DNA of 64,000 nt from a virus (Duplodnaviria > Caudoviricetes). Under the pieces are notes generated by a model. That model had not been told where the DNA came from. It was given only the letters and a program-made list of their open reading frames with translations, and ran no database searches. The translations under genes were made by a program, and so were the position numbers. Below, in pieces: positions 10,330 to 50,432 of the stretch. The stretch's first letter is position 1. The number at the start of each line of letters is the position of its first letter. Where the stretch lies: the IMG/VR virus record IMGVR_UViG_3300021959_007005; one strand, written 5' to 3'.

Positions 10330-10515
10330 ATGAAGATTAATGAAGTAATTCAACCATTAACTGAAGAACAGTTTGATGAAAAAGCAGGTAAAAAAGATGC
10401 TTGCTATCACAAAGTTAAATCACGTTACAAAGTATGGCCATCAGCATACGCATCAGGTGCATTAGTTAAGTGTCGTAAAGTTGGTGCAAAGAACTGGGGT
10501 AATTCAAAGAAATGA
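10330..10515 (+). CDS. Small basic protein conserved in T4-like marine phages
   Basis: KKDACYHKVKSRYKVWPSAYASGALVKCRKVGAKNWG motif; MKINEVI N-terminus. Confidence 0.75.
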   Translation: MKINEVIQPLTEEQFDEKAGKKDACYHKVKSRYKVWPSAYASGALVKCRKVGAKNWGNSKK

Positions 10516-10811
10516 AGATAACCGAAATCATAAACGAAGATTTACGTGCATGGTTTGGCAAAGGTAAAAAGGGCGGTGCAGGCGGCGGTGGCTGGGATGC
10601 ATACAATACAAAAGGCGAACGTATAGGCAAATGCGGAGACACAAAAAGCAAAGCAAAGCCCAAGTGTTTAAGTAAAAGTAAAGCCGCAAGTCTAAGAGCA
10701 AAAGGTGGCAAAAAAGCAATTGGCGCCGCAGTTAGTAAGAAACGTAGACAAGACCCTAATAAAAATCGCAGAGGCAAAGCTAAAAACGTAAGCAATACCA
10801 AAGGGAAATAA
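10512..10811 (+). CDS. Small Lys-rich protein conserved in T4-like marine phages
   Basis: EDLRAWFGKG..GGGGW..PKCLSKSKA motif; MKITEIINED N-terminus. Confidence 0.75.
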   Translation: MKITEIINEDLRAWFGKGKKGGAGGGGWDAYNTKGERIGKCGDTKSKAKPKCLSKSKAASLRAKGGKKAIGAAVSKKRRQDPNKNRRGKAKNVSNTKGK

Positions 10812-10813
10812 CA

Positions 10814-10927
10814 GTGCATACAAAAACTTGTACAAAATGTGGACATGCTTGTCATTGTGACAAAGTAACTTGTCCTACCTGTGTAAATGATGTATGCGGA
10901 CACTGCGATTGCAAAACAAAATCTTAG
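10814..10927 (+). CDS. Cys/His-rich 37-aa microprotein (metallothionein-like)
   Basis: GTG start after AAGGGA; MHTKTCTKCGHACHCDKVTCPTCVNDVCGHCDCKTKS, 9 Cys and 4 His; below the ORF-track cutoff. Confidence 0.7.
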   Translation: MHTKTCTKCGHACHCDKVTCPTCVNDVCGHCDCKTKS

Positions 10928-10956
10928 TTGACATTTGTATATAAATCTGTTATCAT
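10928..10956 (+). promoter_or_regulatory. sigma70-like early promoter
   Basis: TTGACA-N17-TATCAT, ATG 5 nt downstream. Confidence 0.7.
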
Positions 10957-10961
10957 AAATT

Positions 10962-11474
10962 ATGAAATTAAAATTACTTGTAATAGGCCATGGACGTCAT
11001 GGCAAAGATACAGTTTGTGAAATACTGAGAGATCGGTATGGTTATACTTTTGAAAGTAGTAGTAAGTTTTGTAGTAAACTATTCATATATAATGACTTAA
11101 AAAACAAATATAACTATTTAAATGAAGAAGAATGCTATGCTGATAGACATAATCACAGAGCAGAATGGTATAATGCAATATGCAACTATAATGTAAAAGA
11201 TGGTGCATCTCTAGGAAGAGAAATATTTAAAGAACATGATATCTATTGTGGATTACGTAACAAACGTGAATTCTTTGCAATGCAGAATACAGGCGTATTT
11301 GATAAGGTTATATGGGTTGACCGTAGTGATCATTTACCACCAGAAAGTATAAACAGTATGAGTTTACAACAATGGATGGCAGATCATACTATTGATAATA
11401 ATGGAACATTAGATGATCTTGCATTTAATGTACGACAATTATTGACACATATTGATTCTTATAGTGTTAGTTAA
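10962..11474 (+). CDS. Deoxynucleoside monophosphate kinase (T4 gp1-like)
   Basis: P-loop GHGRHGKDT, LRNKRE and VIWVDR motifs. Confidence 0.75.
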   Translation: MKLKLLVIGHGRHGKDTVCEILRDRYGYTFESSSKFCSKLFIYNDLKNKYNYLNEEECYADRHNHRAEWYNAICNYNVKDGASLGREIFKEHDIYCGLRNKREFFAMQNTGVFDKVIWVDRSDHLPPESINSMSLQQWMADHTIDNNGTLDDLAFNVRQLLTHIDSYSVS

Positions 11475-11561
11475 CTACTAAGATAACTACCGTAACCCCC
11501 TGGATAAATGGCAATCTTGTTAAATACATATAACATTATGTAAACAAAGAGGAGTAATGAA

Positions 11562-14048
11562 ATGGCCTTAACGTCACCAGGCGTACAAGTATCGGTAGTT
11601 GATGAGAGTGCATATGGTGCACCAGGATCCGGTACTGTACCACTATTAGTTCTAGCTACTAGATCAAACAAAGCAGATCCAACCGGCGGATCGGCAGATA
11701 ATATTGCGGCAAAAACTAAATCCACAGCCGCTGGCGAAGTAGTGAAAGTTACTAGCCAAAGAGAATTAACACAATTTTTTGGAAACCCAACATTTACCAC
11801 AGTTGGCTCAACAGTTTCACAAGGAAGTGAAACAAGTGAATATGGTCTGTTAGCTGCATATAGTTATCTTGGACAAGGAAGCCAAGCATTTGTTGTAAGA
11901 GCAGATATTGATCTTGCACAATTAGAAAATAGTGCAACTGAACCAACAGCGCCATATAATATAGGCAACACAGTGTGGTTAGACACAGACGCTAGTAAGT
12001 ATGGTATCCATCAGTGGAACAGCACAACTAGCAAATGGGAAAACAAAATACCAGCAGTACAGACTAATTATGATGACGCAGATATTGATGGTGACGTTAA
12101 TACACCAAGCGGCGCAAGTGCTGCAACTGACGGAACATTCCTAGTTGTAACAAACGTTGATAACGAAATAGCAAATAGCGCAGGTCGTGGTATGAGTATT
12201 GAATACTTTTACGGCGTAGGCGGCGCATGGGAATCACTAGATTCAGATACTGCTCTAAGCACTGGTGAAGCTGTAACTTATGATGCACACTATAATGCAC
12301 CAAGCTCTCCAGTAGCAAACGATGTTTGGGTTAAAACAACACGCCCAGGCAACGGTTTGGCACTAGCACTAAGCACACACAATGGCACGGCATTTACAAC
12401 AGCTACAGTACAAGGTATTAGTACTACACAAGCTGATGGTGCAGGAGCCATTGGTGATTTTGTAGCACAAGACGGTTCAAGCACAACTGCATTATCCGCA
12501 AGCACAGCTACAGTAGGTGCTTATTTGTTAGACCAACAAGCAAATACCAAAGCTACTGTTGTTATTAGAGAAGTTATAACAGCGGGTGCAGTAGGCGATT
12601 TAACAGCAACTACAGTATTAGGACAAGCTGCAACACCAACTAGAACACTAGCTACAGGTACATATTGGTTTGATAATACAATTGATAAGTTAGATTTGTA
12701 TGTAATTACAGCAGGTGAATTTTTACCAAAGTCAGCAACTTATAGTTCAACTGCTCCAACAGGTGCTTCTCTAAATGATATTTGGGTTGATACATCACTA
12801 GCAGCAGAAAACCAAACTAACGAACGTGCTTATCCACACATCAAAGTTTATAACGGAAGTGCATGGATTTCACATGACAATACAGATCAAACAACTACAA
12901 CAGGCGTATTGTTTGCAGATATTACAGACGCAGCAGGCGATGCTACTAATAGTGGTAATGCTACAGTTATTAGTGGCGGTCCAAACCCAGCAGTGTATCC
13001 AAATGGAATGGTAGCTGTTAATATGGGGCAGAGTAAAAACACAGTTCGAGCATGGAATGGAACTGCTTGGAGAAATGGTGCAAGCAATCATGCAGATGGT
13101 AGCGGACGTTTTGGTAGATATGCCCAACGTGGTGTTATTGCAACTGCAATGCAGGCAGTGGCAGCAGGTGCAGATCTTAGAGATCCAAGTAATGCATTTA
13201 GTTTAATTGCAGCACCTAACTATCCTGAACTAGTTGATGAAATGGTTACACTTAATAGTGATAGAGGCGAAACTGCATTTATTATTGTTGACTCACCAAT
13301 GCGTAAGAGTCCAACAGATGTTATTAATTGGACTAATAATACAGGAAGTGCATCAGAAAACGGTGAAGATGGTCTGGTAACTAATAATACATATAGTGCA
13401 GTTTATTACCCATCTGGCAGTTCTACATTGCCATCAACTGGTGCATCAGTAATGGTACCACCAAGTCATATGGCATTATATACATTTGCATATAACGATA
13501 ATATTAGTTTCCAATGGTTTGCACCAGCTGGACTAACACGTGGTGTGGTACAAAATGCTACTAGTGTTGGGCACTTGACAACTGAAGGCGAATTTAAAGC
13601 AATTAGCCTTACACAAGGACAGCGTGATGCAATGTATACAGCAAAGCTAAATCCAATCACAACTTTCCCTGGACAAGGCACAATAGTATTTGGACAGAAA
13701 ACTTTACATGCTGGAACTAGTGCATTAGATAGAGTTAATGTTGCTAGATTAGTTGCATACTTGCGTGACAGATTTGATGAACTAGGACGTCCGTTCTTGT
13801 TTGAGATTAATGATGAACAAACAAGAGCAAGAGCAAAGATTGCATTTGAAAGATTCCTCGCAGACATTTTAAGCAGACGTGGACTTACAGATTTTGCAGT
13901 TGTTTGTGATACAAGTAATAACACACCAGCAAGAATTGATCGTAATGAATTTTACGTTGATGTTGCAATTGAACCTTCAAAAGCAGCAGAATTCATCTAT
14001 ATTCCAATTAGATTAGTTAATACTGGTACATTAGCCACTACTAACTAA
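11562..14048 (+). CDS. Tail sheath protein (gp18-like)
   Basis: MALTSPGVQVSVVDES N-terminus; WFAPAGLTRG, LNPITTFPGQG..FGQKT, ALDRVNVARL, VDVAIEPSKAAEFIYIPI. Confidence 0.97.
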   Translation: MALTSPGVQVSVVDESAYGAPGSGTVPLLVLATRSNKADPTGGSADNIAAKTKSTAAGEVVKVTSQRELTQFFGNPTFTTVGSTVSQGSETSEYGLLAAYSYLGQGSQAFVVRADIDLAQLENSATEPTAPYNIGNTVWLDTDASKYGIHQWNSTTSKWENKIPAVQTNYDDADIDGDVNTPSGASAATDGTFLVVTNVDNEIANSAGRGMSIEYFYGVGGAWESLDSDTALSTGEAVTYDAHYNAPSSPVANDVWVKTTRPGNGLALALSTHNGTAFTTATVQGISTTQADGAGAIGDFVAQDGSSTTALSASTATVGAYLLDQQANTKATVVIREVITAGAVGDLTATTVLGQAATPTRTLATGTYWFDNTIDKLDLYVITAGEFLPKSATYSSTAPTGASLNDIWVDTSLAAENQTNERAYPHIKVYNGSAWISHDNTDQTTTTGVLFADITDAAGDATNSGNATVISGGPNPAVYPNGMVAVNMGQSKNTVRAWNGTAWRNGASNHADGSGRFGRYAQRGVIATAMQAVAAGADLRDPSNAFSLIAAPNYPELVDEMVTLNSDRGETAFIIVDSPMRKSPTDVINWTNNTGSASENGEDGLVTNNTYSAVYYPSGSSTLPSTGASVMVPPSHMALYTFAYNDNISFQWFAPAGLTRGVVQNATSVGHLTTEGEFKAISLTQGQRDAMYTAKLNPITTFPGQGTIVFGQKTLHAGTSALDRVNVARLVAYLRDRFDELGRPFLFEINDEQTRARAKIAFERFLADILSRRGLTDFAVVCDTSNNTPARIDRNEFYVDVAIEPSKAAEFIYIPIRLVNTGTLATTN

Positions 14049-14068
14049 ATAAAATTAACATAATACTT

Positions 14069-14097
14069 AATAGGTCCTTTATTGGGCCTATTTTTTT
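14069..14097 (+). terminator. Rho-independent terminator after the sheath gene
   Basis: AATAGGTCC/GGGCCTATT stem followed by a T-run. Confidence 0.8.
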
Positions 14098-14144
14098 GAG
14101 CAGGTTTTAATAAATACTAACAGCCGGTATAAAGGAGAAATTCG

Positions 14145-14750
14145 ATGGCAGTTATCACAACACTTGGTGTACCAGACAATGCAGGTAGCACCACAACAAT
14201 AATGCCCAAACTACAATATCGTTTTAGAGCGACATTCATTGGGGCAGCTTTTAGCAGTACACCTACACGTAGTGTTATTAGCGCAACTAGGCCTTCGTTA
14301 ACACACGAAGATGTAATTATTGAATCCTACAATAGTAGAATTTATGCAGCAGGAAAACACACATGGGATATGGTTACTGTAACCTTCCGTGATGATGTTG
14401 ATAGTGTAGTAATTAAAGAAATGAACAAACAATTAAATATGCAAGTCGATCATGCAAACCAAAGTGCAAGCCGTTCAGGAAGTGCTTATAAATTCCAATT
14501 TATACTTGAATCATTAGATGGTGCAAGCCCAACACCAGGAGTGTTAGACAAATTTGAATTAGCAGGTTGCTATATCCAAAATATTAATTATGGCGATATG
14601 GCTTATGGTAGTAGTGAACAAGTACAAGTAACAGTAAGTATTCGTTATGACAATGCAGAAATTTATGATGCAGCAGGTAATGCAACACTAACTGGAGAAA
14701 CACTTGATCAAACATTAAGTAATGCATCAGGTGCTGGTACACAGGGTTAA
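14145..14750 (+). CDS. Tail tube protein (gp19-like)
   Basis: Follows the sheath; PKLQYRFR, YAAGKHTWD, TVSIRYDNA; TAAATA at 14111 and AAGGAG RBS. Confidence 0.9.
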   Translation: MAVITTLGVPDNAGSTTTIMPKLQYRFRATFIGAAFSSTPTRSVISATRPSLTHEDVIIESYNSRIYAAGKHTWDMVTVTFRDDVDSVVIKEMNKQLNMQVDHANQSASRSGSAYKFQFILESLDGASPTPGVLDKFELAGCYIQNINYGDMAYGSSEQVQVTVSIRYDNAEIYDAAGNATLTGETLDQTLSNASGAGTQG

Positions 14751-14758
14751 TATAGAAT

Positions 14759-15793: not shown

Positions 15794-15804
15794 ATAAATA
15801 CAAC

Positions 15805-16506
15805 ATGGAAGATGATATTATATTAGCAGAGCTCAACGACGAAGAGCTTGTACTGCAAATGGGTGACGACCTCTACGATGGACTCAAGGAAGAAATTGAA
15901 GAAGGTACTAATATTCTATTAGAACGTGGATGGGAACCATATCGGGTATTAACAGAATCTTTAGTTGCTGGTATGACTATTGTGGGCATAGACTTCCGTG
16001 ATGGTATATTGTTTGTGCCTGAAGTGCTACTAGCCGCAAACGCAATGAAAGGTGGTATGGCAATACTCAAACCATTGCTGGCTGAAACAGGTGCACCACA
16101 AGTTGGCAAGATGGTTATTGGCACAGTCAAAGGTGACATACACGACATTGGTAAAAACCTAGTAGGTATGATGATGGAAGGCGCCGGCTTTGAAGTTGTT
16201 GACTTAGGTATCAACAACTCAGTTGATGCATACCTCGATGCAATAGACGAACATGAGCCAGACATATTAGGAATGAGTGCATTGCTTACAACTACTATGC
16301 CTTATATGAAAGTTGTTATTGATACAATGACTGAGAAAGGTATACGTGACAACTATACAGTATTAGTTGGAGGAGCTCCTTTAAATGAAGAGTTCGGTAA
16401 AGCAATAGGTGCTGATGCTTACTGTCGAGATGCAGCCGTAGCAGTAGAAACTGCCAAAGTCTTTATGGATAGAAAACATAATCAACAAAACCTAGTTAGA
16501 AACTAG
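15805..16506 (+). CDS. Stand-alone cobalamin-binding (corrinoid) protein; cap plus B12-binding domains of a split methionine synthase/methyltransferase
   Basis: FVPEVLLAANAMK cap motif; GTVKGDIHDIGKNLV (DxHxxG base-off His-on motif), GMSALLTTT, VGGAP. Confidence 0.95.
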   Translation: MEDDIILAELNDEELVLQMGDDLYDGLKEEIEEGTNILLERGWEPYRVLTESLVAGMTIVGIDFRDGILFVPEVLLAANAMKGGMAILKPLLAETGAPQVGKMVIGTVKGDIHDIGKNLVGMMMEGAGFEVVDLGINNSVDAYLDAIDEHEPDILGMSALLTTTMPYMKVVIDTMTEKGIRDNYTVLVGGAPLNEEFGKAIGADAYCRDAAVAVETAKVFMDRKHNQQNLVRN

Positions 16507-16527
16507 TACATAATAAATACTTACATA

Positions 16528-17222: not shown

Positions 17223-17750
17223 ATGACAAAGAAAATAGAAGAAATACTTAATTTGCCTAGTGCAGACGATATTGAACAAGAAGAGTCGACGATTAGTTTG
17301 CCACAGTCAGACTTTGATATTGGTACAATGAGTACAATTTTAGATAATGCGGATAAGATTGATTCAGCACTACCAATGGTTAGAGATTTAGATAATTTAG
17401 ATGCTGATATGGACAAGTACGCTGATAAAGCAATGCATGCATTTGCAGACTTAATGGATCTTGGACAAAATGTTGAAGACAGACACGCTGCTAATATTTT
17501 TGCTGTGGCAAGTACAATGATGGGAAATGCTATCACTGCCAAAACAGCAAAAATGGATAAAAAACTTAAAATGGTACAGTTACAGTTACAAAAAGCTAAA
17601 CTAGATCATACAGTACAGGTACAAGCTACCAAAGGAGCAAAAGACGATGGTATGATGCAAGGAGAAGCTGAAGAATTTGAAGATCGAAACAGTTTAATTA
17701 ATGCAGTACTTGATAAAATGGGCACTCAATCGTCTAATAAAGATAAATAA
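17223..17750 (+). CDS. Possible terminase small subunit (gp16-like)
   Basis: Helical DLMDLGQNVEDRHAANIFAVA motif resembles the gp16 core; upstream of TerL. Confidence 0.45.
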   Translation: MTKKIEEILNLPSADDIEQEESTISLPQSDFDIGTMSTILDNADKIDSALPMVRDLDNLDADMDKYADKAMHAFADLMDLGQNVEDRHAANIFAVASTMMGNAITAKTAKMDKKLKMVQLQLQKAKLDHTVQVQATKGAKDDGMMQGEAEEFEDRNSLINAVLDKMGTQSSNKDK

Positions 17751-17770
17751 TAGTAACAAGGATATTCGCG

Positions 17771-18277
17771 ATGAAAAGTTTAAAACATTATTTGGCAGAA
17801 AATGAAAGAACATACGAGTTTAGATTACGTAGTGTTGTAGATATGTCAAACGAACAAATTGATAAATTAGAAATGCATATGAAAAAATATAATGTTGAGA
17901 GTGTGAGCTCTCCTAAGAAAACAATTATGCAACAAACTCCTAGAGGATTTAATGCAGACTTGGGTCCTAGAGAAGTATTTGTCACTGATATTGCCACCAA
18001 GTTGCCAGTAACAACTGCACAACTAAAAGATGAAATTAGAGTATGTTGTGGACTTTCAGAAGGCGAATTAATAGTCAATAGTAAACATGAATCACAAGAG
18101 CTTTGGGAAACAGATGAAGAAGCTGTAGATGAAGATGTAACAAGTGTTCTTGCCGATGCAGAATATAAAGACTCAGAAAAGGTTGACCATAGTGAGCATT
18201 ATGGTGATGCATATAATGAAAAAATGATTAAAGATGCAGTAGGATCTAGTGAGCTATACAAAGAATATAAGGTGTAA
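17771..18277 (+). CDS. Hypothetical late (probably head) protein
   Basis: TAAATA at 17744; MKSLKHYLAE N-terminus. Confidence 0.6.
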   Translation: MKSLKHYLAENERTYEFRLRSVVDMSNEQIDKLEMHMKKYNVESVSSPKKTIMQQTPRGFNADLGPREVFVTDIATKLPVTTAQLKDEIRVCCGLSEGELIVNSKHESQELWETDEEAVDEDVTSVLADAEYKDSEKVDHSEHYGDAYNEKMIKDAVGSSELYKEYKV

Positions 18278-18278
18278 C

Positions 18279-19526
18279 ATGGATTTAAATGATTTATACA
18301 AATTAGCAGGAATTCAAAAAAATGATACACCTGCAATAGAGCCAACAGAAGTATCTGAACAACCAATGGGTGATAGAGAACAAATGCAAGCAATGATTGC
18401 GTTAGTTTCTCCAGAACTTTTAAATAAATTACAAGGCACAACAGAAGTTGAAGAAGTTGTTAGCGATCCAGGCGGACAAGGTGAAGGCTATGCTAATAGT
18501 GGTGCAGAGATGGGCTACGATGGTAAGGCAAGAGAAGTAAAACCAAATGATACTGCTGGCGATACAAGTTTAAGACGTTATTTAGGAGCAATGGGAGACC
18601 ATGTTTCTGTAGACGAAGATGTGTATCCAGATCACACAGTAGAAAGTGTCAGCGAAGCATATCAGTCATTTAAAGCAGAAGGCAAATACGGTAAAAAAAA
18701 GAAGTATAAAGAAGATTGTGGATGTGAAGATTGTGGATGTAGTGATGAGGTTGCAACAGAATCTAAAAACCTCCATGATATGGATTGGCCAACTGATGAA
18801 ATGAGACAGCATGCTGAAAATGCTGTACGTCATGAATTTACGCCAAATGATTCAGTTTCTCATATTTTTTCTATGGCACATCCTGAAGAACAAGAGTGGA
18901 TCAAACATAACATGGATGATTTAGAAGAAATGTTTGCACAGTATGCAGTAGATGAGTCAGTAGAAGAAGACTTTACTCCAATGACAAAGTGTACTGATTG
19001 CGATGGTGACGGAGAGGTTGAAGTTGAAACATACAGACCACAAAGTTTTAGCAGAGATATTGGTGAGATTGACAGTCATATGGAAACATGTGAGACTTGT
19101 AACGGTGAGGGTGAAGTTGAAGATGAAGACTACGACTGGGACCAAATGGAAGAGGTCGATGTTGAAGAGGGCAACAAATTCTCACTAGAACTTAAAAAAG
19201 CAAAAGACGCCAACCAAGATGAGTTTGAAGTAGACGGTAAAACCTACAAAGTAACAGAAGCTGAGGGTGAAATGTACGATGATGACGAACAACTAATGAT
19301 TCGTTGGTCAACCGATGATGGTGAAACATGGAACCTAGAAGCATATAATAGAAATGATCAATATGTTCCATTATCACAAGAGGAAGAAATGCGATACATT
19401 GATCAGATTAGAGACGAAGAAGAAGATAGACAAACAATGTCTGCAGACGATGCTGCACATGCAATGCGTGATACAATGCGTATGGATGACGACATTGATA
19501 TGTTAAGAAAGTTAGCAGGAGTTTAA
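18279..19526 (+). CDS. Very acidic probable prohead core/internal protein with a CxxCxGxG zinc-finger pair
   Basis: Start re-called to ATG 18279; KCTDCDGDG..TCETCNGEG; LYKLAG / LRKLAG terminal motifs. Confidence 0.6.
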   Translation: MDLNDLYKLAGIQKNDTPAIEPTEVSEQPMGDREQMQAMIALVSPELLNKLQGTTEVEEVVSDPGGQGEGYANSGAEMGYDGKAREVKPNDTAGDTSLRRYLGAMGDHVSVDEDVYPDHTVESVSEAYQSFKAEGKYGKKKKYKEDCGCEDCGCSDEVATESKNLHDMDWPTDEMRQHAENAVRHEFTPNDSVSHIFSMAHPEEQEWIKHNMDDLEEMFAQYAVDESVEEDFTPMTKCTDCDGDGEVEVETYRPQSFSRDIGEIDSHMETCETCNGEGEVEDEDYDWDQMEEVDVEEGNKFSLELKKAKDANQDEFEVDGKTYKVTEAEGEMYDDDEQLMIRWSTDDGETWNLEAYNRNDQYVPLSQEEEMRYIDQIRDEEEDRQTMSADDAAHAMRDTMRMDDDIDMLRKLAGV

Positions 19527-19528
19527 TA

Positions 19529-19816: not shown

Positions 19817-19830
19817 GTAGGTTTACATTA

Positions 19831-19861: not shown

Positions 19862-19879
19862 CCTATCATAAGTAGTTGT

Positions 19880-27214: not shown

Positions 27215-28078
27215 ATGGGTAAACTATGGATCTTTGGTGATAGTTTCACAAACGCACCATTAGAAAAAAGAATGTTAGTAAATGACTTGGTGTTTACAGA
27301 AGAAAGTAAAAAAGACTTTTCAATGACTTGGCAATCTTTATTATGTCAAAAACTTGGATTGTCTGAAATCTGTAATCACGGTATGCCAGGGATAGGATTA
27401 GATTATATTCAATGGAGATATGTTCAAGAAAGAACCGATATTGATAAAGAAAATGACGTTATTATAATTGGACACACAATGCCTGCTCGTAGATGGTTTA
27501 TACAAAAATCGCCAGAGCTTAGTAACTTTATTAATTTTATCAAAACAGATAGCACACTAAACATAGAATATCTTAAAAAAATGACATTACGTCATGATCA
27601 TGAAACAAGACAAAAGTCTCTTTATCAAGCAGAAGCGGCTAGGCAATATGTTATTAATATAGCTGATCCAGTAATGGAGGAATTGTACGGAGTATCTGTA
27701 TTAGCGTATTTTAATATGCAACAGCATGAGGGGTATCAAATAATTAATATCCCAATTTATGAAAATAGTGAAGTAACTAAATGGAATAATAATTTTAATT
27801 CAATTGGAAATTTAAATTCAGTTAGTGCTAATGAATGGCAATCAGAAAAAAGAGATGAACAAAGTCTTTGGACAGCATTTATGGATATTTGCGGTGGAGC
27901 TGACGGCAGGGTTAACCATCTAATAATGGATAACCATACTATACTAGCTGATAAATTATTTAAAACCATAACAGAAAATGAAACTTTAGACTTGACAACA
28001 GGGTTTATTTCTAATATAGTTAATGCAACAAGTTACGACAGTAAATATGATGTTTATAAAATGAAACAGGTCCCTTAG
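27215..28078 (+). CDS. SGNH/GDSL hydrolase-like protein
   Basis: IFGDSF block I, NHGMPGIG block II, NHL..NH near the C-terminus; stop codon lies inside tRNA-Arg. Confidence 0.6.
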   Translation: MGKLWIFGDSFTNAPLEKRMLVNDLVFTEESKKDFSMTWQSLLCQKLGLSEICNHGMPGIGLDYIQWRYVQERTDIDKENDVIIIGHTMPARRWFIQKSPELSNFINFIKTDSTLNIEYLKKMTLRHDHETRQKSLYQAEAARQYVINIADPVMEELYGVSVLAYFNMQQHEGYQIINIPIYENSEVTKWNNNFNSIGNLNSVSANEWQSEKRDEQSLWTAFMDICGGADGRVNHLIMDNHTILADKLFKTITENETLDLTTGFISNIVNATSYDSKYDVYKMKQVP

Positions 28079-28145
28079 CTCAGCTGGATAGAGCAAGTGC
28101 CTTCTAAGCACTAGGTCAGAGGTTCGAATCCTCTAGGGTCCGCCA
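28069..28145 (+). tRNA. tRNA-Arg(UCU)
   Basis: Cloverleaf; anticodon arm AGTGC-CTTCTAA-GCACT; GGTTCGAATCC; encoded CCA; U3:U70 mismatch. Confidence 0.93.
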
Positions 28146-28153
28146 GAATATGT

Positions 28154-28230
28154 ACTCCTCTAGCTCAATTGGTTAGAGCAGAACGCTCATAACGTTTTGG
28201 TTACAGGTTCGAGTCCTGTGGGGAGTACCA
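28154..28230 (+). tRNA. tRNA with CAU anticodon (Ile2-lysidine type or elongator Met)
   Basis: ACTCCTC/GGGGAGT acceptor stem, CTCATAA loop, encoded CCA; paired 1-72 so not initiator. Confidence 0.9.
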
Positions 28231-28235
28231 ATTAT

Positions 28236-28309
28236 AAGGGTGTGGTGAAATGGTATCACGCTGGTCTCCAAAACCAGAAGCAGGAGTTCGATTCTCCTCA
28301 CCTTTGCCA
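28236..28309 (+). tRNA. tRNA-Trp(CCA)
   Basis: CTGGT-CTCCAAA-ACCAG arm, G73, encoded CCA. Confidence 0.93.
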
Positions 28310-28318
28310 AAGTTTATG

Positions 28319-28490
28319 GTGCAGAGAACACCGCAGGAATAAACTGATAAGAGTAAACTGCAACGTTCTTTGTACAGTAGGAAAATCGTCGGAAGACTAG
28401 ATAGTTAAAATCTATGCATAGTCATATCTAGCTTCGACAGGCGTTGGAAATTAATAGGAGTAATTACCTAGTGACCTTCCTGAATCCTAC
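28319..28490 (+). ncRNA. Candidate structured RNA of unknown class inside the tRNA array
   Basis: Stems 28319-29/28365-75, 28377-82/28485-90, 28397-403/28425-31 and TAGG/CCTA; no convincing ORF. Confidence 0.5.
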
Positions 28491-28499
28491 AAGTGTTAA

Positions 28500-28589
28500 G
28501 GTGAGGTGGCTGAGTGGCCGAAAGCGCCGGATTACTAATCCGGAGAACGTGCAAGCGTTCCGTGGGTTCGAATCCCACCCTCACTGCCA
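28500..28589 (+). tRNA. tRNA-Ser(ACU), type II with long variable arm
   Basis: CCGGA-TTACTAA-TCCGG anticodon arm, GAACG/CGTTC variable arm, G73, encoded CCA. Confidence 0.92.
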
Positions 28590-28592
28590 GAT

Positions 28593-28676
28593 GCTCGCAT
28601 GATGGAATGGTAGACATAACAGACTTAAAATCTGTGGCCGTAAGGCGTCCCGGTTCGAGTCCGGGTGCGAGTACCA
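28593..28676 (+). tRNA. tRNA-Leu(UAA)
   Basis: ACAGA-CTTAAAA-TCTGT arm, long variable arm, A73, encoded CCA. Confidence 0.95.
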
Positions 28677-28701
28677 AATTAAACCACGGATAAGTATTTT
28701 T

Positions 28702-28776
28702 ATGAAAACTTGTCCAGATTGTAAAACAGAATTAGGTCATAACGATTTTTGTCCTAATTGCAGAGTAAAACGATAA
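28702..28776 (+). CDS. 24-aa zinc-ribbon microprotein
   Basis: MKTCPDCKTELGHNDFCPNCRVKR; TAAGTA promoter-like motif just upstream. Confidence 0.55.
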   Translation: MKTCPDCKTELGHNDFCPNCRVKR

Positions 28777-28777
28777 C

Positions 28778-28853
28778 GCCGCAATAGCTCAGTTGGTAGA
28801 GCAACTGATTTGTAATCAGTAGGTCCCGAGTTCGAATCTTGGTTGCGGCACCA
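28778..28853 (+). tRNA. tRNA-Thr(UGU)
   Basis: GCCGCAA/TTGCGGC acceptor stem, ACTGA-TTTGTAA-TCAGT arm, encoded CCA. Confidence 0.95.
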
Positions 28854-43470: not shown

Positions 43471-43471
43471 T

Positions 43472-43873: not shown

Positions 43874-44043
43874 TGTTGAAGCAAAGGTGCAGTGTACCTT
43901 ATCTTTTATATATGTGGTCCTGAACTATTAACCTGTAGTAGGCCAATTTAAGCGTTGGTGAATTAATCTTATCGTTAACGGATCCTATGTTCTAATACCA
44001 GTTTCTGCAATTGCCATAAGTGCTAATCACCAATGCCTCAACT
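43872..44043 (-). ncRNA. Candidate late-expressed structured ncRNA, about 170 nt
   Basis: Minus-strand TAAATA at 44054-44049; terminal stem GTTGAGGCA/TGCTTCAAC; further stems TTGGTGA/TCACCAA, CTTAT/ATAAG, ATTGGCCT/AGGTTAAT and AAGGT/ACCTT; G-U pairs favour the minus strand; no ORF. Confidence 0.65.
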
Positions 44044-44081
44044 AAACTTATTTAACTTAACTTTAACTAAATAGTGTTACA

Positions 44082-44321
44082 ATGAAAAGAAAAACTAGAT
44101 CTTTACTGGAAGAAATTAATTCTATGTCACCCAAGCGTGACAAGAAGCAAATTGTTGAGAGTAATGCACAACAAGTAATTGGTACAGCAATACATCTTAT
44201 TGATTTAATAAATGAATCGTTCGACGAAGAAACAGCTAACGACCTTAACAAACGTTTAATTAACAGTATTAGGGCAAAAGACCCACGTAAGTTTCAACGA
44301 GGTATTGGTAAAGTATTATGA
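44082..44321 (+). CDS. Hypothetical late protein
   Basis: TAAATA at 44068, ATG 8 nt downstream. Confidence 0.65.
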   Translation: MKRKTRSLLEEINSMSPKRDKKQIVESNAQQVIGTAIHLIDLINESFDEETANDLNKRLINSIRAKDPRKFQRGIGKVL

Positions 44322-45151
44322 AAGTATCTGATATAATTGTTGGCGAAAAGTCACGTAAAATACGTAACAAGCGCCAAGTAAGAATTAATGGAAATAGTTT
44401 ACTGGCTAAAAGTGGTAAACATGCTATTAAACGTCTTAGTGAAAAAAATGCAATACCTGGTTCACTAGAAGTACCACATGAAATTATGCCAAGTTTGGTA
44501 AAAATAATTAACAGCGTTCTAGCAAAAACCAATAGCACAGGCATACCCATTGGAAGTGGCGCAACTCCTATACCCGGAGAGACCAGTGGTGATATAGACA
44601 TAATTGTTGATGTTAATGATCTTAAAAAGCACTTTAAGATGGAAGACCAAACTGATGGAGTTATTAGAAAAAAGCTAAAACAATTATTTGATTTAGCTGG
44701 ATTTCAAACAGTACAAACTGGTGTTATTGTTCATGTTGGACTTAACGTAAAAGGTAACTTATATCAAGCAGATGTTATGGTTGTACCTAATGCAGCCAAT
44801 GCGGCACAATTTCATACACACAATATTCCAAAAGGCAGTCCTTTCAAAGGTACTAACAAGCATCAGCTGCTGAGTATTATTGCTAGAGAAAAAGGTATGC
44901 TGTGGAGTAACTATGTTGGATTGTTTAAACGTTTACCAAACGGTAAAAAAGATCCCAACGGATTTATTACCAGTGATATTAATAAAATTGCACAATTATT
45001 ATTGGGTCCAAACGCAAAACCACTTGACATGGGGAGCGTAGAAGCTATAGTATCAGCATTAGGCGATGCAGGACAAGACCTGTTAGCAAACATTAGAGCA
45101 AATGATCCTAACTGGAAAGAAAAAACTAATGAGACTGCAATCAATCCTTAA
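44318..45151 (+). CDS. Pol-beta-superfamily nucleotidyltransferase
   Basis: IGSG..SGDIDIIVD (hGS..DxD motif) and a third Asp in YQADVMVV. Confidence 0.8.
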   Translation: MKVSDIIVGEKSRKIRNKRQVRINGNSLLAKSGKHAIKRLSEKNAIPGSLEVPHEIMPSLVKIINSVLAKTNSTGIPIGSGATPIPGETSGDIDIIVDVNDLKKHFKMEDQTDGVIRKKLKQLFDLAGFQTVQTGVIVHVGLNVKGNLYQADVMVVPNAANAAQFHTHNIPKGSPFKGTNKHQLLSIIAREKGMLWSNYVGLFKRLPNGKKDPNGFITSDINKIAQLLLGPNAKPLDMGSVEAIVSALGDAGQDLLANIRANDPNWKEKTNETAINP

Positions 45152-46211
45152 AGAATCTACCTCTAAAGGTAGAGAGTATAATCATTTAGAAGACCTTGTA
45201 TTTTTTGAAGGATCCAGTGGTGCATTTAAAGCAGCACAGTTACTAACACGTCTTGGACAGGATACTGGTGATGTTAGTATTAAATGGGATGGCAGTCCAA
45301 CTATATTTTGGGGACGTCAACCAAATGGTACATTTGTATTAGTAGGCAAAAATGGTTGGGGTAAGCGTATGAGTACCACACCAGAAGATTTATCAGATTA
45401 TATTTTAAATACTGGAAAAGGTGAAGATTGGCGTAAAGAATTTGCAGCAGGCATGAGTTCTCTTTTTGCTATTATGGAAGATAGTACTCCTGCTGATATG
45501 CGTGGATATGTGTATGGAGATCTATTGTTCCATCCAGGAAAGCCAGCAGTTAAAAATAAAGATAGTATAACATTTAAGCCTAATAATGTAACATATACTG
45601 TTGACAGTCAAAGCCCATTGGGACAAAAAATGTCTAAAAGTAGTGTTTGTGTAGTAGTACATACTTGGCATGATGCATTTGGTGACAAGGTTGGAACACC
45701 AATTAAAGCACCAAAAAAACTTAATAGTGAGTTAGTAACAGTATTAGGACAAACATATGTTACCCAAACTCCTGCTATAGATACTAGTGCAGTTGAAAAT
45801 ATTGTAAACACAACACGAAACAATAGCACTAAGATTGATAATTGGCTAGCACCAGAACAAGGATTGAGTAGGAAAGATCAAATACTTTATACCTATGTTA
45901 ATCAAATGACTAAGATGGGCAAACTAGACCAGATACGTAGTGGATTTTTTGATTGGCTTAAACAAAGTAAAGTAAGTCCAGGCCAACAAACTAAGTTAAT
46001 GTCTAATGACAGTCAAGGACTTGATATTATATTAGATTTAGTTGCACAAATACAGACAGCAAAAAATAATATAATTGATCAATTAGATGCTACTAGCACT
46101 GATGTTAAAGCAGTGACTGGTAATAAGCCAGGCGGCGAAGGATATGTAGTTACTAGGGATAAAATTAAGCTAGTACCTAGAGATAGATGGACACCAGTTC
46201 AAGTTGGATAA
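45129..46211 (+). CDS. RNA-ligase/covalent nucleotidyltransferase-like protein (probably DUF6267-type)
   Basis: Start re-called to ATG 45129; NHLED; motif I KWDG, YVYGDLL, motif IV GEGYVV, motif V KLV. Confidence 0.7.
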   Translation: MRLQSILKESTSKGREYNHLEDLVFFEGSSGAFKAAQLLTRLGQDTGDVSIKWDGSPTIFWGRQPNGTFVLVGKNGWGKRMSTTPEDLSDYILNTGKGEDWRKEFAAGMSSLFAIMEDSTPADMRGYVYGDLLFHPGKPAVKNKDSITFKPNNVTYTVDSQSPLGQKMSKSSVCVVVHTWHDAFGDKVGTPIKAPKKLNSELVTVLGQTYVTQTPAIDTSAVENIVNTTRNNSTKIDNWLAPEQGLSRKDQILYTYVNQMTKMGKLDQIRSGFFDWLKQSKVSPGQQTKLMSNDSQGLDIILDLVAQIQTAKNNIIDQLDATSTDVKAVTGNKPGGEGYVVTRDKIKLVPRDRWTPVQVG

Positions 46212-46219
46212 ATATTATT

Positions 46220-47005
46220 ATGGAAAAATATACAGCAAAACAATGGTCTGAAATTCAAGGTGGACATACTATGTCCAATAATCAAGAAACTAAATTTGGA
46301 TTTATATCAAACCTTAATGAAAGTAGAATGTATCGTACTAAGCAAAGCGTAGTTGGTACTAATGCCAGAGATATGGCAGATTTTGCTTTTATGAATATGT
46401 TAGCTGTTTATATTCTAAGTAAAGAATACGATTTTGCTCCAGCTATGCAAGGATATGCTAAACGTACTATGATGTTTGGTAATTTTTCTGCATATAGACA
46501 GACTGGTACAGATCTATATATTGCTCTTAATAGCCTACAAAATAATAGTAGCGGTACTAGCGATAAAGATAAAATACAAAATAATAAAATTAGTTTGCCT
46601 GATCAAAAAATTAAAGTATTTTTAAGACAAATAATGACTGGCAGACCAGTGTTGAACCCATCAGCATTTTTTCTTGCATTAGAACGAGGACTTGATATAC
46701 AAAGTTCTAACTATAGAAGTGTTAGAAGATTAGCACAAGACTGGGACAGATTAAACGGTATGCAAAAAAGTTTAGTAGTTACTCGAATGTTACAGTTTTT
46801 TAGAGCTAAAGCATTGCGCAGTGAGCTATACACATATATAAGAGATATGTCAAGAACACAGGGCTTAGAAATTAAAGGTGCAGGTAATGCAGAAGACCCC
46901 AAAGCAAGAGGAGTTGACACACTTAAAAGTGTAGCAGCAAATGTTGCTGTGGCGGCTGGGGGGTTTGCTGCTGGTAGAGCATTTGGTAGACGTATAGCCA
47001 AATAA
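46220..47005 (+). CDS. Hypothetical late protein
   Basis: TAAATA at 46209, ATG 46220. Confidence 0.65.
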   Translation: MEKYTAKQWSEIQGGHTMSNNQETKFGFISNLNESRMYRTKQSVVGTNARDMADFAFMNMLAVYILSKEYDFAPAMQGYAKRTMMFGNFSAYRQTGTDLYIALNSLQNNSSGTSDKDKIQNNKISLPDQKIKVFLRQIMTGRPVLNPSAFFLALERGLDIQSSNYRSVRRLAQDWDRLNGMQKSLVVTRMLQFFRAKALRSELYTYIRDMSRTQGLEIKGAGNAEDPKARGVDTLKSVAANVAVAAGGFAAGRAFGRRIAK

Positions 47006-47409
47006 TGAATACCTTTATTGCGTACACGCTGGTTGATATTACCAACAGTGGAATTACTAGACCGTTTAATAATATTTTAGCATATAATCAACAACAAAAT
47101 TTAAACACCTTAATACAGACAATTGGGATTAGGAGTCAGCCATTATCGCCAATAGTTGTAGTTGAATCTACACAAGATCTAGTTAAATATCAGTTCGGAA
47201 AGCAGTATAAAGGACTACATACTGTATGGAAAATAAAATTTAGTATAGAACATAGTGACGTTTTTAGTTATAAGGGTAATAGATTACATCATTTATATAA
47301 TGATTCTGATGGTATTGCTATTATATCTAATTTATCAGAAACAGCAAATATTAATACTGGATGTTTTGAAACTACTGACCAGTATAAAATTAACCTGTAC
47401 TTTAAATAG
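47005..47409 (+). CDS. Hypothetical protein
   Basis: ORF track; TAATG coupling. Confidence 0.6.
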   Translation: MNTFIAYTLVDITNSGITRPFNNILAYNQQQNLNTLIQTIGIRSQPLSPIVVVESTQDLVKYQFGKQYKGLHTVWKIKFSIEHSDVFSYKGNRLHHLYNDSDGIAIISNLSETANINTGCFETTDQYKINLYFK

Positions 47410-47568
47410 TCTAAGAATTTTACTAAATAGACGTACGGCAACAAATACTTAGGCAAATGCGGAGTTAGTCACAAGCCTCCGATATCAAAAGGCATTAATA
47501 TTAATTAATTCAATATCAAGATCCATCAACAGTTAAGACACTGGATGAATATAGAGAAGCAATAAATT

Positions 47569-47862
47569 ATGTCCGTAGGATTAGTAACCACCGCTTTAGA
47601 GCGCACAAATTTAGAAGCACATGTTGATCTGTGCGCTGAGAGGTATCGGGTATTGGAAGAAAAAGTTAATAATATTGATCGACGATTAGACGCCATGGCT
47701 GAAAACATGTATGCATTTAGAGACGAAACAAAACAATCTATTGCTGAAATGCGAGAAGAAAATATCAAATCAAATGCGGCGGCAAACAGAATAATAATTA
47801 CTGCGGCGGCAACCGTAGTAGCTGGTGTATTGAGTACACTAGTTGTACTAGTAATGTCCTAA
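47569..47862 (+). CDS. Coiled-coil protein with a C-terminal TM helix (XhlA/holin-like topology)
   Basis: LEAHVDLCAERY..LEEKVNNIDRRLD coiled coil; IIITAAATVVAGVLSTLVVLVMS. Confidence 0.55.
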   Translation: MSVGLVTTALERTNLEAHVDLCAERYRVLEEKVNNIDRRLDAMAENMYAFRDETKQSIAEMREENIKSNAAANRIIITAAATVVAGVLSTLVVLVMS

Positions 47863-47887
47863 TAATCTTTCCCACATAAATAGTATT

Positions 47888-48181
47888 ATGAATTTAAATG
47901 AATTACATAATGACACTGTGATTGAAGCACAACTTGTTTGGGCGAGGAAAGGTAATCAACTTACTCGTAAATACAGATGCACAGTAGGACAACGTGCTGG
48001 TAGGCTAGTTTCTAAGCCTGGTCAGTGTAGCGCACCTATTGATATCAAAAAAAGAATGACATTAAAAAGAACTAAAGCTAAGTTTGGAAAGAAAATGGCA
48101 CGTAAAGCAGCCAAGACAAAAAAGTTTAATCCAGCAAGCAAAGCACTGAAACGTTTAAACAAACCAGCGAGAAGAAAATGA
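47888..48181 (+). CDS. Basic late protein
   Basis: TAAATA at 47877; K/R-rich. Confidence 0.65.
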   Translation: MNLNELHNDTVIEAQLVWARKGNQLTRKYRCTVGQRAGRLVSKPGQCSAPIDIKKRMTLKRTKAKFGKKMARKAAKTKKFNPASKALKRLNKPARRK

Positions 48182-48537
48182 AGATATTTGAAGTTATTGC
48201 AGAAGATAAAAAGACTTGGATGAAGGATGGCGTTGAAATGTGCAGCAAAGACTGTTGCGGTCAACCTGTTACTGAATGCGAATGCGGTCCAGATTGCAAA
48301 CATTGTGATTGTTATAAAGTAAATGAAGGATATGGTATGCGTAAGGGCACAGCAATGGCACGTACCCAAACTAGTACTAGTATAAATTCTAATAAGCGGG
48401 CAAATAATAGTGCTAGAAATAATGCAGACGAGATTAATATTTCTACAAAAAGACAACAAAGAAAAATAGACCGAAATGCAAAAGTACAGCCAACTGGAAT
48501 ACCTATTAGAGCAATAGAACCGGAAGCAGGTGTATAA
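48178..48537 (+). CDS. Late protein with a Cys-cluster domain
   Basis: MKIFEVIAED; CSKDCCGQPVTECECGPDCKHCDC. Confidence 0.65.
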   Translation: MKIFEVIAEDKKTWMKDGVEMCSKDCCGQPVTECECGPDCKHCDCYKVNEGYGMRKGTAMARTQTSTSINSNKRANNSARNNADEINISTKRQQRKIDRNAKVQPTGIPIRAIEPEAGV

Positions 48538-48761
48538 TGCGTAGTATGGTAACCAAAGGCGGGATACTTACTTGGATCAATGTCGTTGAAAGCGAATTCA
48601 TTGAGTCCCACTTTTCTGGAGATGTTTTACTAGAACAAACAAATTTAAATGAGCGTGAAAAATATATTGCACAAACACTCGTTGGACGAGGCGTCCTAGA
48701 TAAAGTAGTTAGTGGCAAACAAGTCAATTATAAACTAAACATTAATAAATTTGGACAATAA
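48537..48761 (+). CDS. Hypothetical protein
   Basis: ORF track; translationally coupled. Confidence 0.55.
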   Translation: MRSMVTKGGILTWINVVESEFIESHFSGDVLLEQTNLNEREKYIAQTLVGRGVLDKVVSGKQVNYKLNINKFGQ

Positions 48762-48763
48762 TT

Positions 48764-49243
48764 ATGCAGATGCGAGAAATTATAGATACACTATCAAAAA
48801 TAGACTTAGTTACTCAACAACTTGTTGAAGAATCGTATAATGATATGGATCTTGAAGTAGCAATTACTAGTAAAATTACAGAAAATAGTATCACTATACA
48901 AAAATATAGAATTGATATTATTTTAAATGAATTTGCCAGTAAACAAAAGAAATTTTATAATATTGTAGATACTACTAATAATGAAATAATTTATGAACAC
49001 TTGGGACTATTTGAAACTGCTAAAGGAATAGTTAAAAAATTATTGTCTGGATCTAACACTGGGTCGCAAGAATTGCGCCAATTAAAATTATTAGATGACG
49101 CATATAGTAATGCCTTATATGAAGTTTGGATGTATAAGAATAAAGCTAGCACAGGTATCAATGAAGACGTTATGATTGCTAAAATGAGTAATGCAAAACA
49201 CAAATTACAAGAAACAAAACGAAAAATATTAAAGAACTTATAA
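48764..49243 (+). CDS. Hypothetical protein
   Basis: ORF track. Confidence 0.6.
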   Translation: MQMREIIDTLSKIDLVTQQLVEESYNDMDLEVAITSKITENSITIQKYRIDIILNEFASKQKKFYNIVDTTNNEIIYEHLGLFETAKGIVKKLLSGSNTGSQELRQLKLLDDAYSNALYEVWMYKNKASTGINEDVMIAKMSNAKHKLQETKRKILKNL

Positions 49244-49269
49244 ATATACTAAAGGATGGGAATGGTAAC

Positions 49270-50115
49270 ATGTACTTAAACGATTTAAATTCAGCACAGC
49301 ATAGTGTGCAAAAACTAAACAAGGTTCTAGCTGATAGTTTTGACCATGAGGTTAACTTGGCAGAAATGAGCTTTGGTAGCTTAGAGAAAATGTTAAACAC
49401 AACAAACGCTAAAATTCAATCAATTAAAGAAAGCAATGCAACATATTGGGAAAATCCACAATATAATAAATTAAGTTTAATCTCGCATACACTTTCAACA
49501 TATATTACTGAAATTGCACCAGGGCGTTCAGATGGTAAAACCAAAAGAACAATGGAAAGCACAGTAATGGAAGCAGATTTGGAACAAGCAGAAGTATTAT
49601 TGGCAGCAAGAGAATTGGTTGATCAACTTCAAGATATGGCAGAGGATATTGCTAAAATGCAAGTTCAAGAATTAATGCCAATTGTTGATGCAATGAAGGA
49701 TCAACTTGGATTCGAGCAAGCTGAAGCATACAATGCAGTAGCAGATGCAACATTGGGTGCCTTACTTGATGCAGCAAAAGCAGCAAAAACATCACTAGAT
49801 GATGCAACACTTAGTGCAGAAGGCAAACCAACATCAGGTGCAACTGACATGGCTATGGAACCAGACATGGATATGGACATGGACATGGATACTGATGAGG
49901 ACGAGTTTGCAGGAGATGAAGCCGCAGCAGGTGAAGAAAACGCTGTAGGTCGAGAACTTAAAGACGAAAGTGTTCTTTCTAATATGGAAGGCGAAGCATT
50001 AGCTGAGAAAAAGTTTTTAGAGAGTAAAGATAAACTTTTCACTATGGTAAAAGAAGGTAAACTAACACAAGAGCAGTTTATTAATATTATTAGTGAGTTT
50101 GATAAGGCAAAGTAA
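49270..50115 (+). CDS. Acidic helical late protein (scaffold/core-like)
   Basis: Full TATAAATA at 49239-49246; coiled coils; MDMD linker. Confidence 0.55.
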   Translation: MYLNDLNSAQHSVQKLNKVLADSFDHEVNLAEMSFGSLEKMLNTTNAKIQSIKESNATYWENPQYNKLSLISHTLSTYITEIAPGRSDGKTKRTMESTVMEADLEQAEVLLAARELVDQLQDMAEDIAKMQVQELMPIVDAMKDQLGFEQAEAYNAVADATLGALLDAAKAAKTSLDDATLSAEGKPTSGATDMAMEPDMDMDMDMDTDEDEFAGDEAAAGEENAVGRELKDESVLSNMEGEALAEKKFLESKDKLFTMVKEGKLTQEQFINIISEFDKAK

Positions 50116-50432
50116 TGAAGATATTTGAAGTCATAGGCGGAACATTACCACAGGATGACATTATTGATGCTATTCAAGAATTTGTGGCTAGAGCAAAAGC
50201 AAGAAATTTGGCAAAGATTAGTACACCAATGTTATTGGGAAAACTCCAGTCTCAAGGCTTCAGCATTGAAATGGAAACATTAATTCCTATACTCAGTTCA
50301 ATATCAAGTGTAGGGTCAGCAAATGAAAAAACAGTCACTCTGGATATCGCAATCCCCCCATCCGTTGATGATCCAGAGGATGATACCGTTAGTAAGCTAG
50401 CTAGTAGACAAATGAAGAAAGATATGAAATGA
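50115..50432 (+). CDS. Hypothetical late protein
   Basis: MKIFEVI N-terminus. Confidence 0.6.
   Translation: MKIFEVIGGTLPQDDIIDAIQEFVARAKARNLAKISTPMLLGKLQSQGFSIEMETLIPILSSISSVGSANEKTVTLDIAIPPSVDDPEDDTVSKLASRQMKKDMK

Follow-up and report, generated by a model that had tools for sequence, protein, structure and literature searches.

Why do so many proteins with unrelated bodies, encoded by one phage, begin with nearly the same ten residues? The question arises in a stretch of 64,000 nucleotides (nt) of viral DNA (IMG/VR record IMGVR_UViG_3300021959_007005, Caudoviricetes; hereafter the window). A first-pass annotation of this stretch listed ten N-termini between positions 10,330 and 50,432, likened them to the capsid-targeting sequence (CTS) of phage T4, and proposed that they mark proteins packaged in the head and ejected from it, offering a way to mine injected anti-defence or host-takeover factors. 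All ten are present where that annotation placed them, each at the start of a gene on the + strand (genes are named here by the position of their first nucleotide). Judging from its genes, the window is part of the genome of a jumbo myovirus in the T4 superfamily, a marine phage, as yet uncultured, that is syntenic with Pseudomonas phage PA5oct.

Our preferred answer, to which we would give a probability of about 0.6, is that the shared N-terminus is a lineage-specific, T4-like capsid-targeting propeptide of the form M-K-h-x-E-h-h-x-E (h, hydrophobic), a short amphipathic acidic leader. We favor this reading because the leader has the residue spacing of the T4 CTS, stands on late genes, usually ends in hydrophobic-x-Glu and lies outside the folded bodies, and because a prohead protease of the S77 family is found in more distant members of the clade and tagged PA5oct proteins have been detected in virions. 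Should the tag act as in T4, the sequence of an uncultured ocean phage would be enough to list the proteins that it packages and injects, and this would offer a route to the host-takeover, anti-defence and DNA-protection factors that act in the first minute of infection, for which few computational routes exist.

A shared N-terminus on unrelated proteins

The strict core of the tag, M-K-[IV]-x-[ED]-[IV]-I, starts five genes: 10330, 10512, 44318, 48178 and 50115. Five proteins have the peptide [IV]x[ED][IV]I at residue 3, where chance would give about 0.03 occurrences, whereas the remaining 19,834 residues contain it only twice. At the DNA level, the back-translated strict pattern matches the window five times, against 0.23 matches expected; none of 100 shuffles reaches five, and each of the matches lies on the + strand at the start of a gene. 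The remaining five listed N-termini follow a looser form, M-x-h-x-[ED]-h or MK[ST]LxxYLAE, as does MQMREII at gene 48764, which was absent from the earlier list, and these six are weaker members of the set. Beyond residue 12 all pairwise BLASTP E-values exceed 0.05, in agreement with the first-pass description of the bodies as unrelated. The start codons at 18279 and 45129 are internal to longer open frames; both are supported by their orthologues, which start at the same positions.

Two candidate origins of the tag can be set aside. Chance or codon bias is ruled out by the shuffles and the strand specificity, and signal-peptide or membrane targeting is ruled out because the leader has no hydrophobic stretch.

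Conservation was followed in 80 IMG/VR loci around the orthologue of 49270 and another 80 around the neck gene, 1.8 Mb in total. These 160 related loci hold 119 strict tags, all 119 of them on the coding strand, over 13 unrelated body families. This bears on the proposal that the similarity is a functionless by-product, arising either because an AT-rich genome constrains translation starts or because the 5' ends of genes were recently duplicated. Lysine is indeed a common second residue (12 of the 87 window proteins), and 48178 and 50115 agree at 19 of their first 21 nucleotides, much as such a duplication would leave them. Most window genes nevertheless start differently, and the codons of the other tags vary at synonymous sites, indicating that conservation acts at the protein level. 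Orthologues at 40-70% identity retain the pattern, with positions 2, 3, 5, 6 and 7 conserved, while the x positions 4 and 8 vary freely, and the pattern is never found on the non-coding strand of the 1.8 Mb. Among the explanations that we weighed, we regard this one as the least probable.

The tagged genes had also been described as lying in units driven by TAAATA. On the + strand of the window the longer motif ATAAATA occurs 13 times, and 12 of the 13 copies are within 36 nt of a start codon, counting the start at 46220 for gene 46187. For TAAATA, 18 of 49 copies are within 45 nt of a start, and such positions make up 5.9% of the window. The first ATG of the open reading frame at 46187-47005 (+ strand) is probably not the true start, as judged from its relatives: the first 10 residues are not conserved across 35 orthologues, and ATAAATA stands 11-13 nt before the ATG at 46220 (MEKYTAKQW).

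A gene was counted into a unit if the motif stood close to its start or if it was tightly coupled to the gene before it. By this crude rule every tagged gene falls, as far as sequence can tell, in a unit that opens with TAAATA or ATAAATA near a start codon. All of the heading motifs described here are on the + strand. The TAAATA at 9577-9582 lies 11 nt before the neck gene 9588 and heads the unit 9588-10811; that at 17744-17749 lies 27 nt before gene 17771; that at 44068-44073 lies 14 nt before gene 44082 and heads the unit 44082-46211; that at 47877-47882 lies 11 nt before gene 47888 and heads the unit 47888-49243; and that at 49241-49246 lies 29 nt before gene 49270 and heads the unit 49270-51046. 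Of the 43 genes assigned to such units five begin with a strict tag, as do none of the other 40 genes (p = 0.03); for loose tags the counts are 10/43 and 0/40 (p = 0.0008). By analogy with T4, TAAATA would be a late promoter; the annotation of PA5oct includes a late sigma factor.

Likeness to capsid-targeting propeptides

Both the T4 CTS and the propeptides of giant phages are already established. The internal proteins of T4 are highly basic, carry the CTS MKTYQEFIAE and are cut once beside it. All T4 internal head proteins join the core by means of the CTS, the protease gp21 removes propeptides, and any protein fused to the CTS is encapsidated. The prohead proteases of T4-type and giant phages cut after Glu.

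Compared by eye over about 10 residues, MKIFEVIAE, MKITEIINE and MKSLKHYLAE have in common with the T4 CTS an M-K start and the spacing of hydrophobic residues and Glu. The common spacing is hydrophobic-x-E-hydrophobic-hydrophobic-x-E, as in MKIFEVIAE here and MKTYQEFIAE in T4, and in this respect the first-pass comparison holds. The closest positional match to the T4 CTS among the ten listed N-termini is MKSLKHYLAE, at 17771. In both of these T4-superfamily phages, unrelated late proteins begin, at their extreme N-terminus, with a leader about 10 residues long, and several of the cargo proteins are small and highly basic (three bodies here have isoelectric points (pI) of 9.9-12). The consensus in the window is one residue shorter, however (MKIxEVIxE against MKTYQEFIAE), and the tag is more degenerate, with Asp in place of Glu, with R, L or N in place of K, and with some families having no terminal Glu. 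The candidate cargo also differs from that of T4 in including enzymes, one with a Pol X fold and one ligase-like.

A second comparison is offered by the jumbo phages SPN3US, phiKZ and 201phi2-1, in which propeptides of head and ejection proteins are cut at A/S/G-x-E by an S80 prohead protease (PMC5694885, PMC7411985). There, too, many head-internal proteins are processed after Glu, as is predicted from sequence here, and paralogues have conserved N-termini that the authors of those studies read as CTS-like. Those propeptides, in contrast, are mostly longer than 100 residues with a small residue two before the cut, and the protease family and the lineage are different; the leaders in the window are T4-sized, with a hydrophobic residue two before the Glu. 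Full-text literature searches returned no paper on CTS-type tags in PA5oct-like, bS21-encoding or marine jumbo phages, or in cyanophages.

Were the leader to act as the T4 CTS does, it would bind the scaffolding core of the assembling prohead, so that the protein following it becomes enclosed in the head. A protease of the T4 gp21 type (S77) would then cut the leader after hydrophobic-x-Glu, in most cases, and the mature cargo would stay in the head with the DNA: small, very basic proteins of DNA-binding type, a Pol X-like nucleotidyltransferase and a ligase-like enzyme. This cargo would probably be delivered to the host at infection. Core binding, cleavage, head retention and ejection are all inferred here.

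Several properties of the leader are consistent with such a propeptide. In the families of 47888, 48178, 45129 and 50115 it is 8-13 residues long and ends in hydrophobic-x-Glu directly before the conserved body. This ending is kept in the families of 10330, 10512, 45129, 47888 and 48178 and in most orthologues of 50115, but not in most orthologues of 44318. A second hydrophobic-x-Glu within residues 6-18 is present in 49% of tagged proteins against 26% of controls. Both AlphaFold2 models (44318 and 45129) show the leader as a disordered segment that is not part of the folded domain, and the leader of 45129 also lies outside the Pfam match to DUF6267. A homologue of 47888 in Salicola phage SCTP-2 has the body and lacks the leader, which indicates that the leader is a separable piece.

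A separable leader on diverse proteins could also serve a modifying enzyme, for instance a radical-SAM maturase that recognizes many precursors. The tag, however, lacks the Cys, Ser or Thr pattern that substrates of such enzymes typically show. In the window, none of the tagged genes has a radical-SAM gene in its neighborhood, and PA5oct carries the tag while its only radical-SAM gene is of the QueE type. The chance that the leader is a maturase recognition sequence therefore appears slim.

Cleavage of a capsid-targeting propeptide would call for a suitable protease. A Peptidase_S77 prohead protease (PF03420, T4 gp21-type) is present in the related genomes G003, G004 and G005 (E 1e-27 to 1e-29), and at least 598 related contigs also carry S77 protease genes. 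Across 80 such loci the genes of the head module run as follows: first one for a protein of about 75 amino acids (aa) whose start is MKLFEMF, MILNEVY or a similar sequence, next one for an acidic protein (about 270 aa), then those for the protease, for a scaffold protein starting MLDAIKPLLESGLINE and for the major capsid protein. The tag motif is thus also the N-terminus of a conserved head-module protein, one that occupies the place where T4 gene order has its small core proteins.

The position of this small protein, between the portal and protease genes, lends itself to a narrower interpretation, in which the motif is a signal for prohead-core assembly only. The tagged proteins would contribute to the internal core or accompany it, and would be degraded or expelled at maturation, like T4 gp22, gp67 and gp68, with no retention or injection, and the tag would not be an effector mark. 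T4 core proteins are indeed cut into fragments that exit the head, and in the window some of the proteins that begin with loose forms of the motif are very acidic and resemble scaffolds. On the other hand, the enzymes and the protamine-like bodies have the look of cargo and not of scaffold, and four proteins of PA5oct (gp246, gp279, gp333 and gp282) are detected in mature virions. We therefore consider it unlikely that the motif serves core assembly and nothing more.

The virion data come from caesium chloride-purified particles of PA5oct, in which 93 proteins were identified by electrospray ionization tandem mass spectrometry (ESI-MS/MS; Lood et al. 2020, PMC7318152); flags in the genome annotation likewise count 93 of about 445 proteins as virion-detected. 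The main text of that paper has no mention of the terms N-terminal, propeptide, targeting, prohead protease or internal. Searching the PA5oct genome for the strict tag gave three annotated starts, gp333 (MKINDIITE, adjoining the portal gene), gp279 (MKLFEVF) and gp246, and all three proteins are on the virion list (p of about 0.01 at a background of 21%). Their N-terminal motif and their syntenic positions are those seen in the window, although strict tags are sparser in PA5oct (about three in 287 kb) than in the window (five in 64 kb). The PA5oct orthologues of 17771, 18279 and 49270 (gp282, gp281 and gp247, respectively) are also on the list. As PA5oct is cultured and bears the tag on three virion-detected proteins, the idea is testable in culture.

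The leader might instead be recognized by some other partner, such as a Clp/AAA+ unfoldase or a chaperone of phage or host, as a degradation or handling signal that times or localizes late proteins and does not load them into the capsid. Phages of the PA5oct type encode ClpX-, ClpA-, ClpS-, FtsH- and DnaJ-like proteins, and some ClpX N-terminal signals begin with Met followed by a basic and a hydrophobic residue. What such a partner leaves unexplained is the T4 CTS spacing, the Glu-ended leaders directly before conserved bodies, the tagged head-module protein and the detection of tagged proteins in PA5oct virions, and we judge this alternative quite improbable.

The propeptide reading has its own difficulties. 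By mean identity the leader is not conserved above the body, falling between the 6th and 55th percentile of 8-residue windows, and only the pattern positions are kept. Most orthologues of 44318 read MKIADILGG, a leader lacking the terminal Glu, as does the window's own 50115 (MKIFEVIGG), and Asp is frequent at position 5 in place of Glu. Strict tags are at chance level in the freshwater genomes G003 and G004, with 1-2 matches per 230-330 kb, the same as a reversed-pattern control; as both genomes bear the protease, the expansion of the tag is lineage-specific and not tied to merely having the enzyme. The nearest record, a near-identical 74-kb fragment, has no protease gene or head module, and the S77 protease was seen in more distant members of the clade. 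The PA5oct list includes ribonucleotide reductase and thymidylate synthase, so membership in it is not specific; three of three tagged proteins is a small sample; and gp256, the likely counterpart of 45129 (by motifs and position, with no BLAST match), is not on the list.

With these points counted, the first-pass proposal stands in part. That the tag marks packaged proteins agrees with the CTS core, the late units, the leader ends, the S77 protease of the clade and the virion detection in PA5oct, and on the T4 model the tagged proteins are probably packaged with the DNA. As injected effectors, however, 18279 and 49270 are poor candidates: both are very acidic and scaffold-like, and each is probably a prohead-core or scaffold-type component that uses the same motif. 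The suggestion of anti-defence factors is not borne out, since no such function is indicated for any of the cargo proteins.

Candidate cargo and its cyanophage relatives

Two of the strict tags head the small basic proteins that follow the neck gene. Gene 10330 (10330-10515) encodes 61 aa with the tag MKINEVIQPLTEE and a body of pI 9.9, and matches phrog_727 (E 9e-26); gene 10512 (10512-10811) encodes 99 aa with the tag MKITEIINED and a very basic body of pI 10.9, also in phrog_727. The 10330 protein is 84% identical to residues 412-468 of the 591-aa gp114 of Synechococcus phage S-RIM8, in a match that spans the leader part K-x-N-E...L-T-E-E, so the segment equivalent to its leader is internal in gp114. 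The 10512 protein aligns with residues 77-155 of the same protein (E 1e-9). The homologue in cyanophage S-E7 is annotated "structural protein, T4-GC0119", and in both S-RIM8 and S-E7 the gp114/T4-GC0119 gene comes after the neck and small-terminase genes. Window and cyanophages thus have the same two basic modules in the same slot, which follows the neck genes and precedes the gene for the large terminase. They differ in that a single cyanophage protein of 530-590 aa contains the modules, linked by acidic stretches rich in Glu, whereas in the window they are separate genes, each with its own tag.

The gp114/T4-GC0119 proteins (L001:4768-6543 and L002:5032-6621) are chains of small modules rich in Lys, Arg and Cys, split by Glu-rich linkers, and in this composition the protein resembles a polyprotein cleavable by a prohead protease. 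The gene directly after gp114 in S-RIM8 (L001:6543-6869) encodes 108 aa starting MKSYNEFISE, which agrees with the T4 CTS at 7 of 10 positions; to go by this start, T4-like cyanophages may use a near-canonical CTS. Marine relatives (70-75% identity) have either nothing or other genes in the slot that follows the neck gene, and in G003 it holds a different protein starting MRAKEFINE, showing that the contents of the slot are variable.

The enzymes are encoded in the unit 44082-46211. Its first gene (44082-44321) is untagged and encodes a protein of 79 aa that matches phrog_11854, "virion structural protein" (E 5e-20), with PA5oct gp259 as its orthologue. The second, 44318 (44318-45151; 277 aa), carries the strict tag MKVSDIIVGE followed by a basic linker, and its fold is predicted to be that of a Pol X nucleotidyltransferase. 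In the AlphaFold2 model the mean predicted local distance difference test score (pLDDT) is 84; residues 1-40, the leader and a linker rich in Lys and Arg, score below 50 and are disordered, and residues 41-271 are mostly above 90. Foldseek aligns about 205 residues of the model with DNA polymerases lambda and beta (E 4e-9, template modeling (TM) score 0.45-0.50). Three Asp residues, D92 and D94 of a G-D-x-D motif and D152, do not vary among 18 orthologues; together with the model, they predict a palm and thumb fold of the Pol beta type that bears three catalytic carboxylates.

The third gene of the unit, 45129 (45129-46211), encodes a DUF6267 protein of 360 aa with the loose leader MRLQSILKE; the match to Pfam PF19782 (E 4e-29) begins at residue 18. 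Residues K52-W-D-G55 are invariant in 16 sequences. In VIA-align the top rows are RNA and DNA ligases with weak scores (Z 5.0-5.9), nothing significant was returned by Foldseek against the PDB or by phmmer against PDB sequences, and a protein-atlas search gave no decisive match. We call the protein "ligase-like" on the strength of these structural comparisons, not a proven ligase. Its orthologues retain L-T-E and then A before the body, even those into which an extra Cys motif has been inserted: in some, a CxxC...CxC insert lies between a start of the MRFTEF type and the kept L-S/T-E plus A. Some marine relatives (L043:451-1755 and L050:1204-2505) have a leader and basic linker of the 44318 type fused straight to the DUF6267 body, with no Pol X domain between them, an arrangement which implies that the modules behind the tag have been reshuffled between strains.

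The next unit begins with 47888 (47888-48181), a protamine-like protein of 97 aa with the loose leader MNLNELHNDTVIE and a body of pI 12.0. Its orthologues and paralogues have leaders of 8-13 residues, all ending in Glu directly before the conserved body. Gene 48178 (48178-48537) encodes a Cys-rich protein of 119 aa with the strict tag MKIFEVIAED, and shows the same leader pattern in its relatives, where the Glu directly precedes a conserved GYG body; some of the relatives do not have the Cys-rich insert. No homologue of 48178 was found in PHROG, Pfam or the phage collection, and 44318, 47888 and 50115 have no PHROG or Pfam match. The unit closes with 48764 (48764-49243), which encodes 159 aa behind the loose start MQMREIID; in its orthologues the leaders are longer and end in V-A-E. 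The last strict tag, MKIFEVIGG, belongs to gene 50115 (50115-50432; 105 aa), the orthologue of PA5oct gp246, which starts VKIKDILVE, while marine orthologues start MLINEVI.ED.

Taken together, these proteins suggest a larger scheme that we put forward tentatively, as a possibility rather than an expectation. A marine jumbo-phage lineage may have expanded T4 targeting into a portable, sequence-readable label, which loads DNA-coating, protamine-like proteins together with a Pol X-like and ligase-like pair, for gap filling and sealing, into the head for delivery with the DNA; the same modules would make up one protease-cleavable polyprotein in cyanophages. In that case sequence data would suffice to list the ejected proteins of uncultured T4-like phages. 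The Pol X-like and ligase-like enzymes and the protamine-like basic proteins shared with cyanophages are, in any case, concrete candidates for cargo.

The remaining tagged proteins are acidic. Gene 17771 (17771-18277; 168 aa, loose start MKSLKHYLAE) encodes an acidic virion protein of phrog_14802, "virion structural protein", and its PA5oct orthologue, gp282, starts MKSFRDYYDA and was detected by ESI-MS/MS. Gene 49270 (49270-50115; 281 aa, pI 4.3, loose start MYLNDL) falls in phrog_14154, "virion structural protein", and has homologues in PA5oct (gp247, detected by ESI-MS/MS) and in Atu_ph07, where it is annotated "virion structural protein". Gene 18279 (18279-19526; 415 aa, pI 4.1) has the loose start MDLNDLYKLAGI and occupies the syntenic position of PA5oct gp281, which starts MFNINDILRLAGV and was likewise detected by ESI-MS/MS. 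The 18279 protein has L-x-K-L-A-G-[IV] at both ends, within the N-terminal start just given and in MLRKLAGV at the C-terminus, and this element may be a second assembly or processing signal.

Lineage of the phage and other features of the window

The window is about 36% G+C, with nearly all coding on the + strand from 8.3 kb onward. PHROG and Pfam identify structural genes for a tail fibre of 2072 aa, a neck adaptor, the tail sheath, two tube proteins, a head-closure protein and the large terminase, and replication and recombination genes for a gp32-type single-stranded DNA-binding protein, UvsX, UvsY, a primase, a DnaB-type helicase and an exonuclease. The large terminase is at most 57% identical to that of any deposited phage; its best matches are in PA5oct and relatives, followed by Atu_ph07 and the Rak2/GAP32 group. 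Gene order is close to that of PA5oct. A DNA-level search of the structural region against the phage collection gave no match.

A gene in the tail and neck module, between the tube genes and the head-closure gene, encodes a cobalamin-binding protein of 233 aa (15805-16506, + strand) with both domains of such proteins (PF02607, E 2e-15; PF02310, E 5e-26). It stands behind an ATAAATA late-type motif, and the PA5oct gene at the same position encodes an unrelated virion protein; the window gene would thus be a putatively late-expressed gene for B12 binding in a structural operon. Between an SGNH-like gene and the next late-motif unit lies a cluster of six tRNA genes (28069-28853, + strand): Arg-TCT, Met-CAT, Trp-CCA, Ser-ACT, Leu-TAA and Thr-TGT. 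In its 5' part, within 6355-6610, the 2072-aa tail-fibre gene (893-7111, - strand) contains two repeated 22-nt strings of different sequence, one with copies at 6355 and 6589 and the other with copies at 6380 and 6497, the two copies being about 120-230 nt apart. These repeats indicate an internal duplication.

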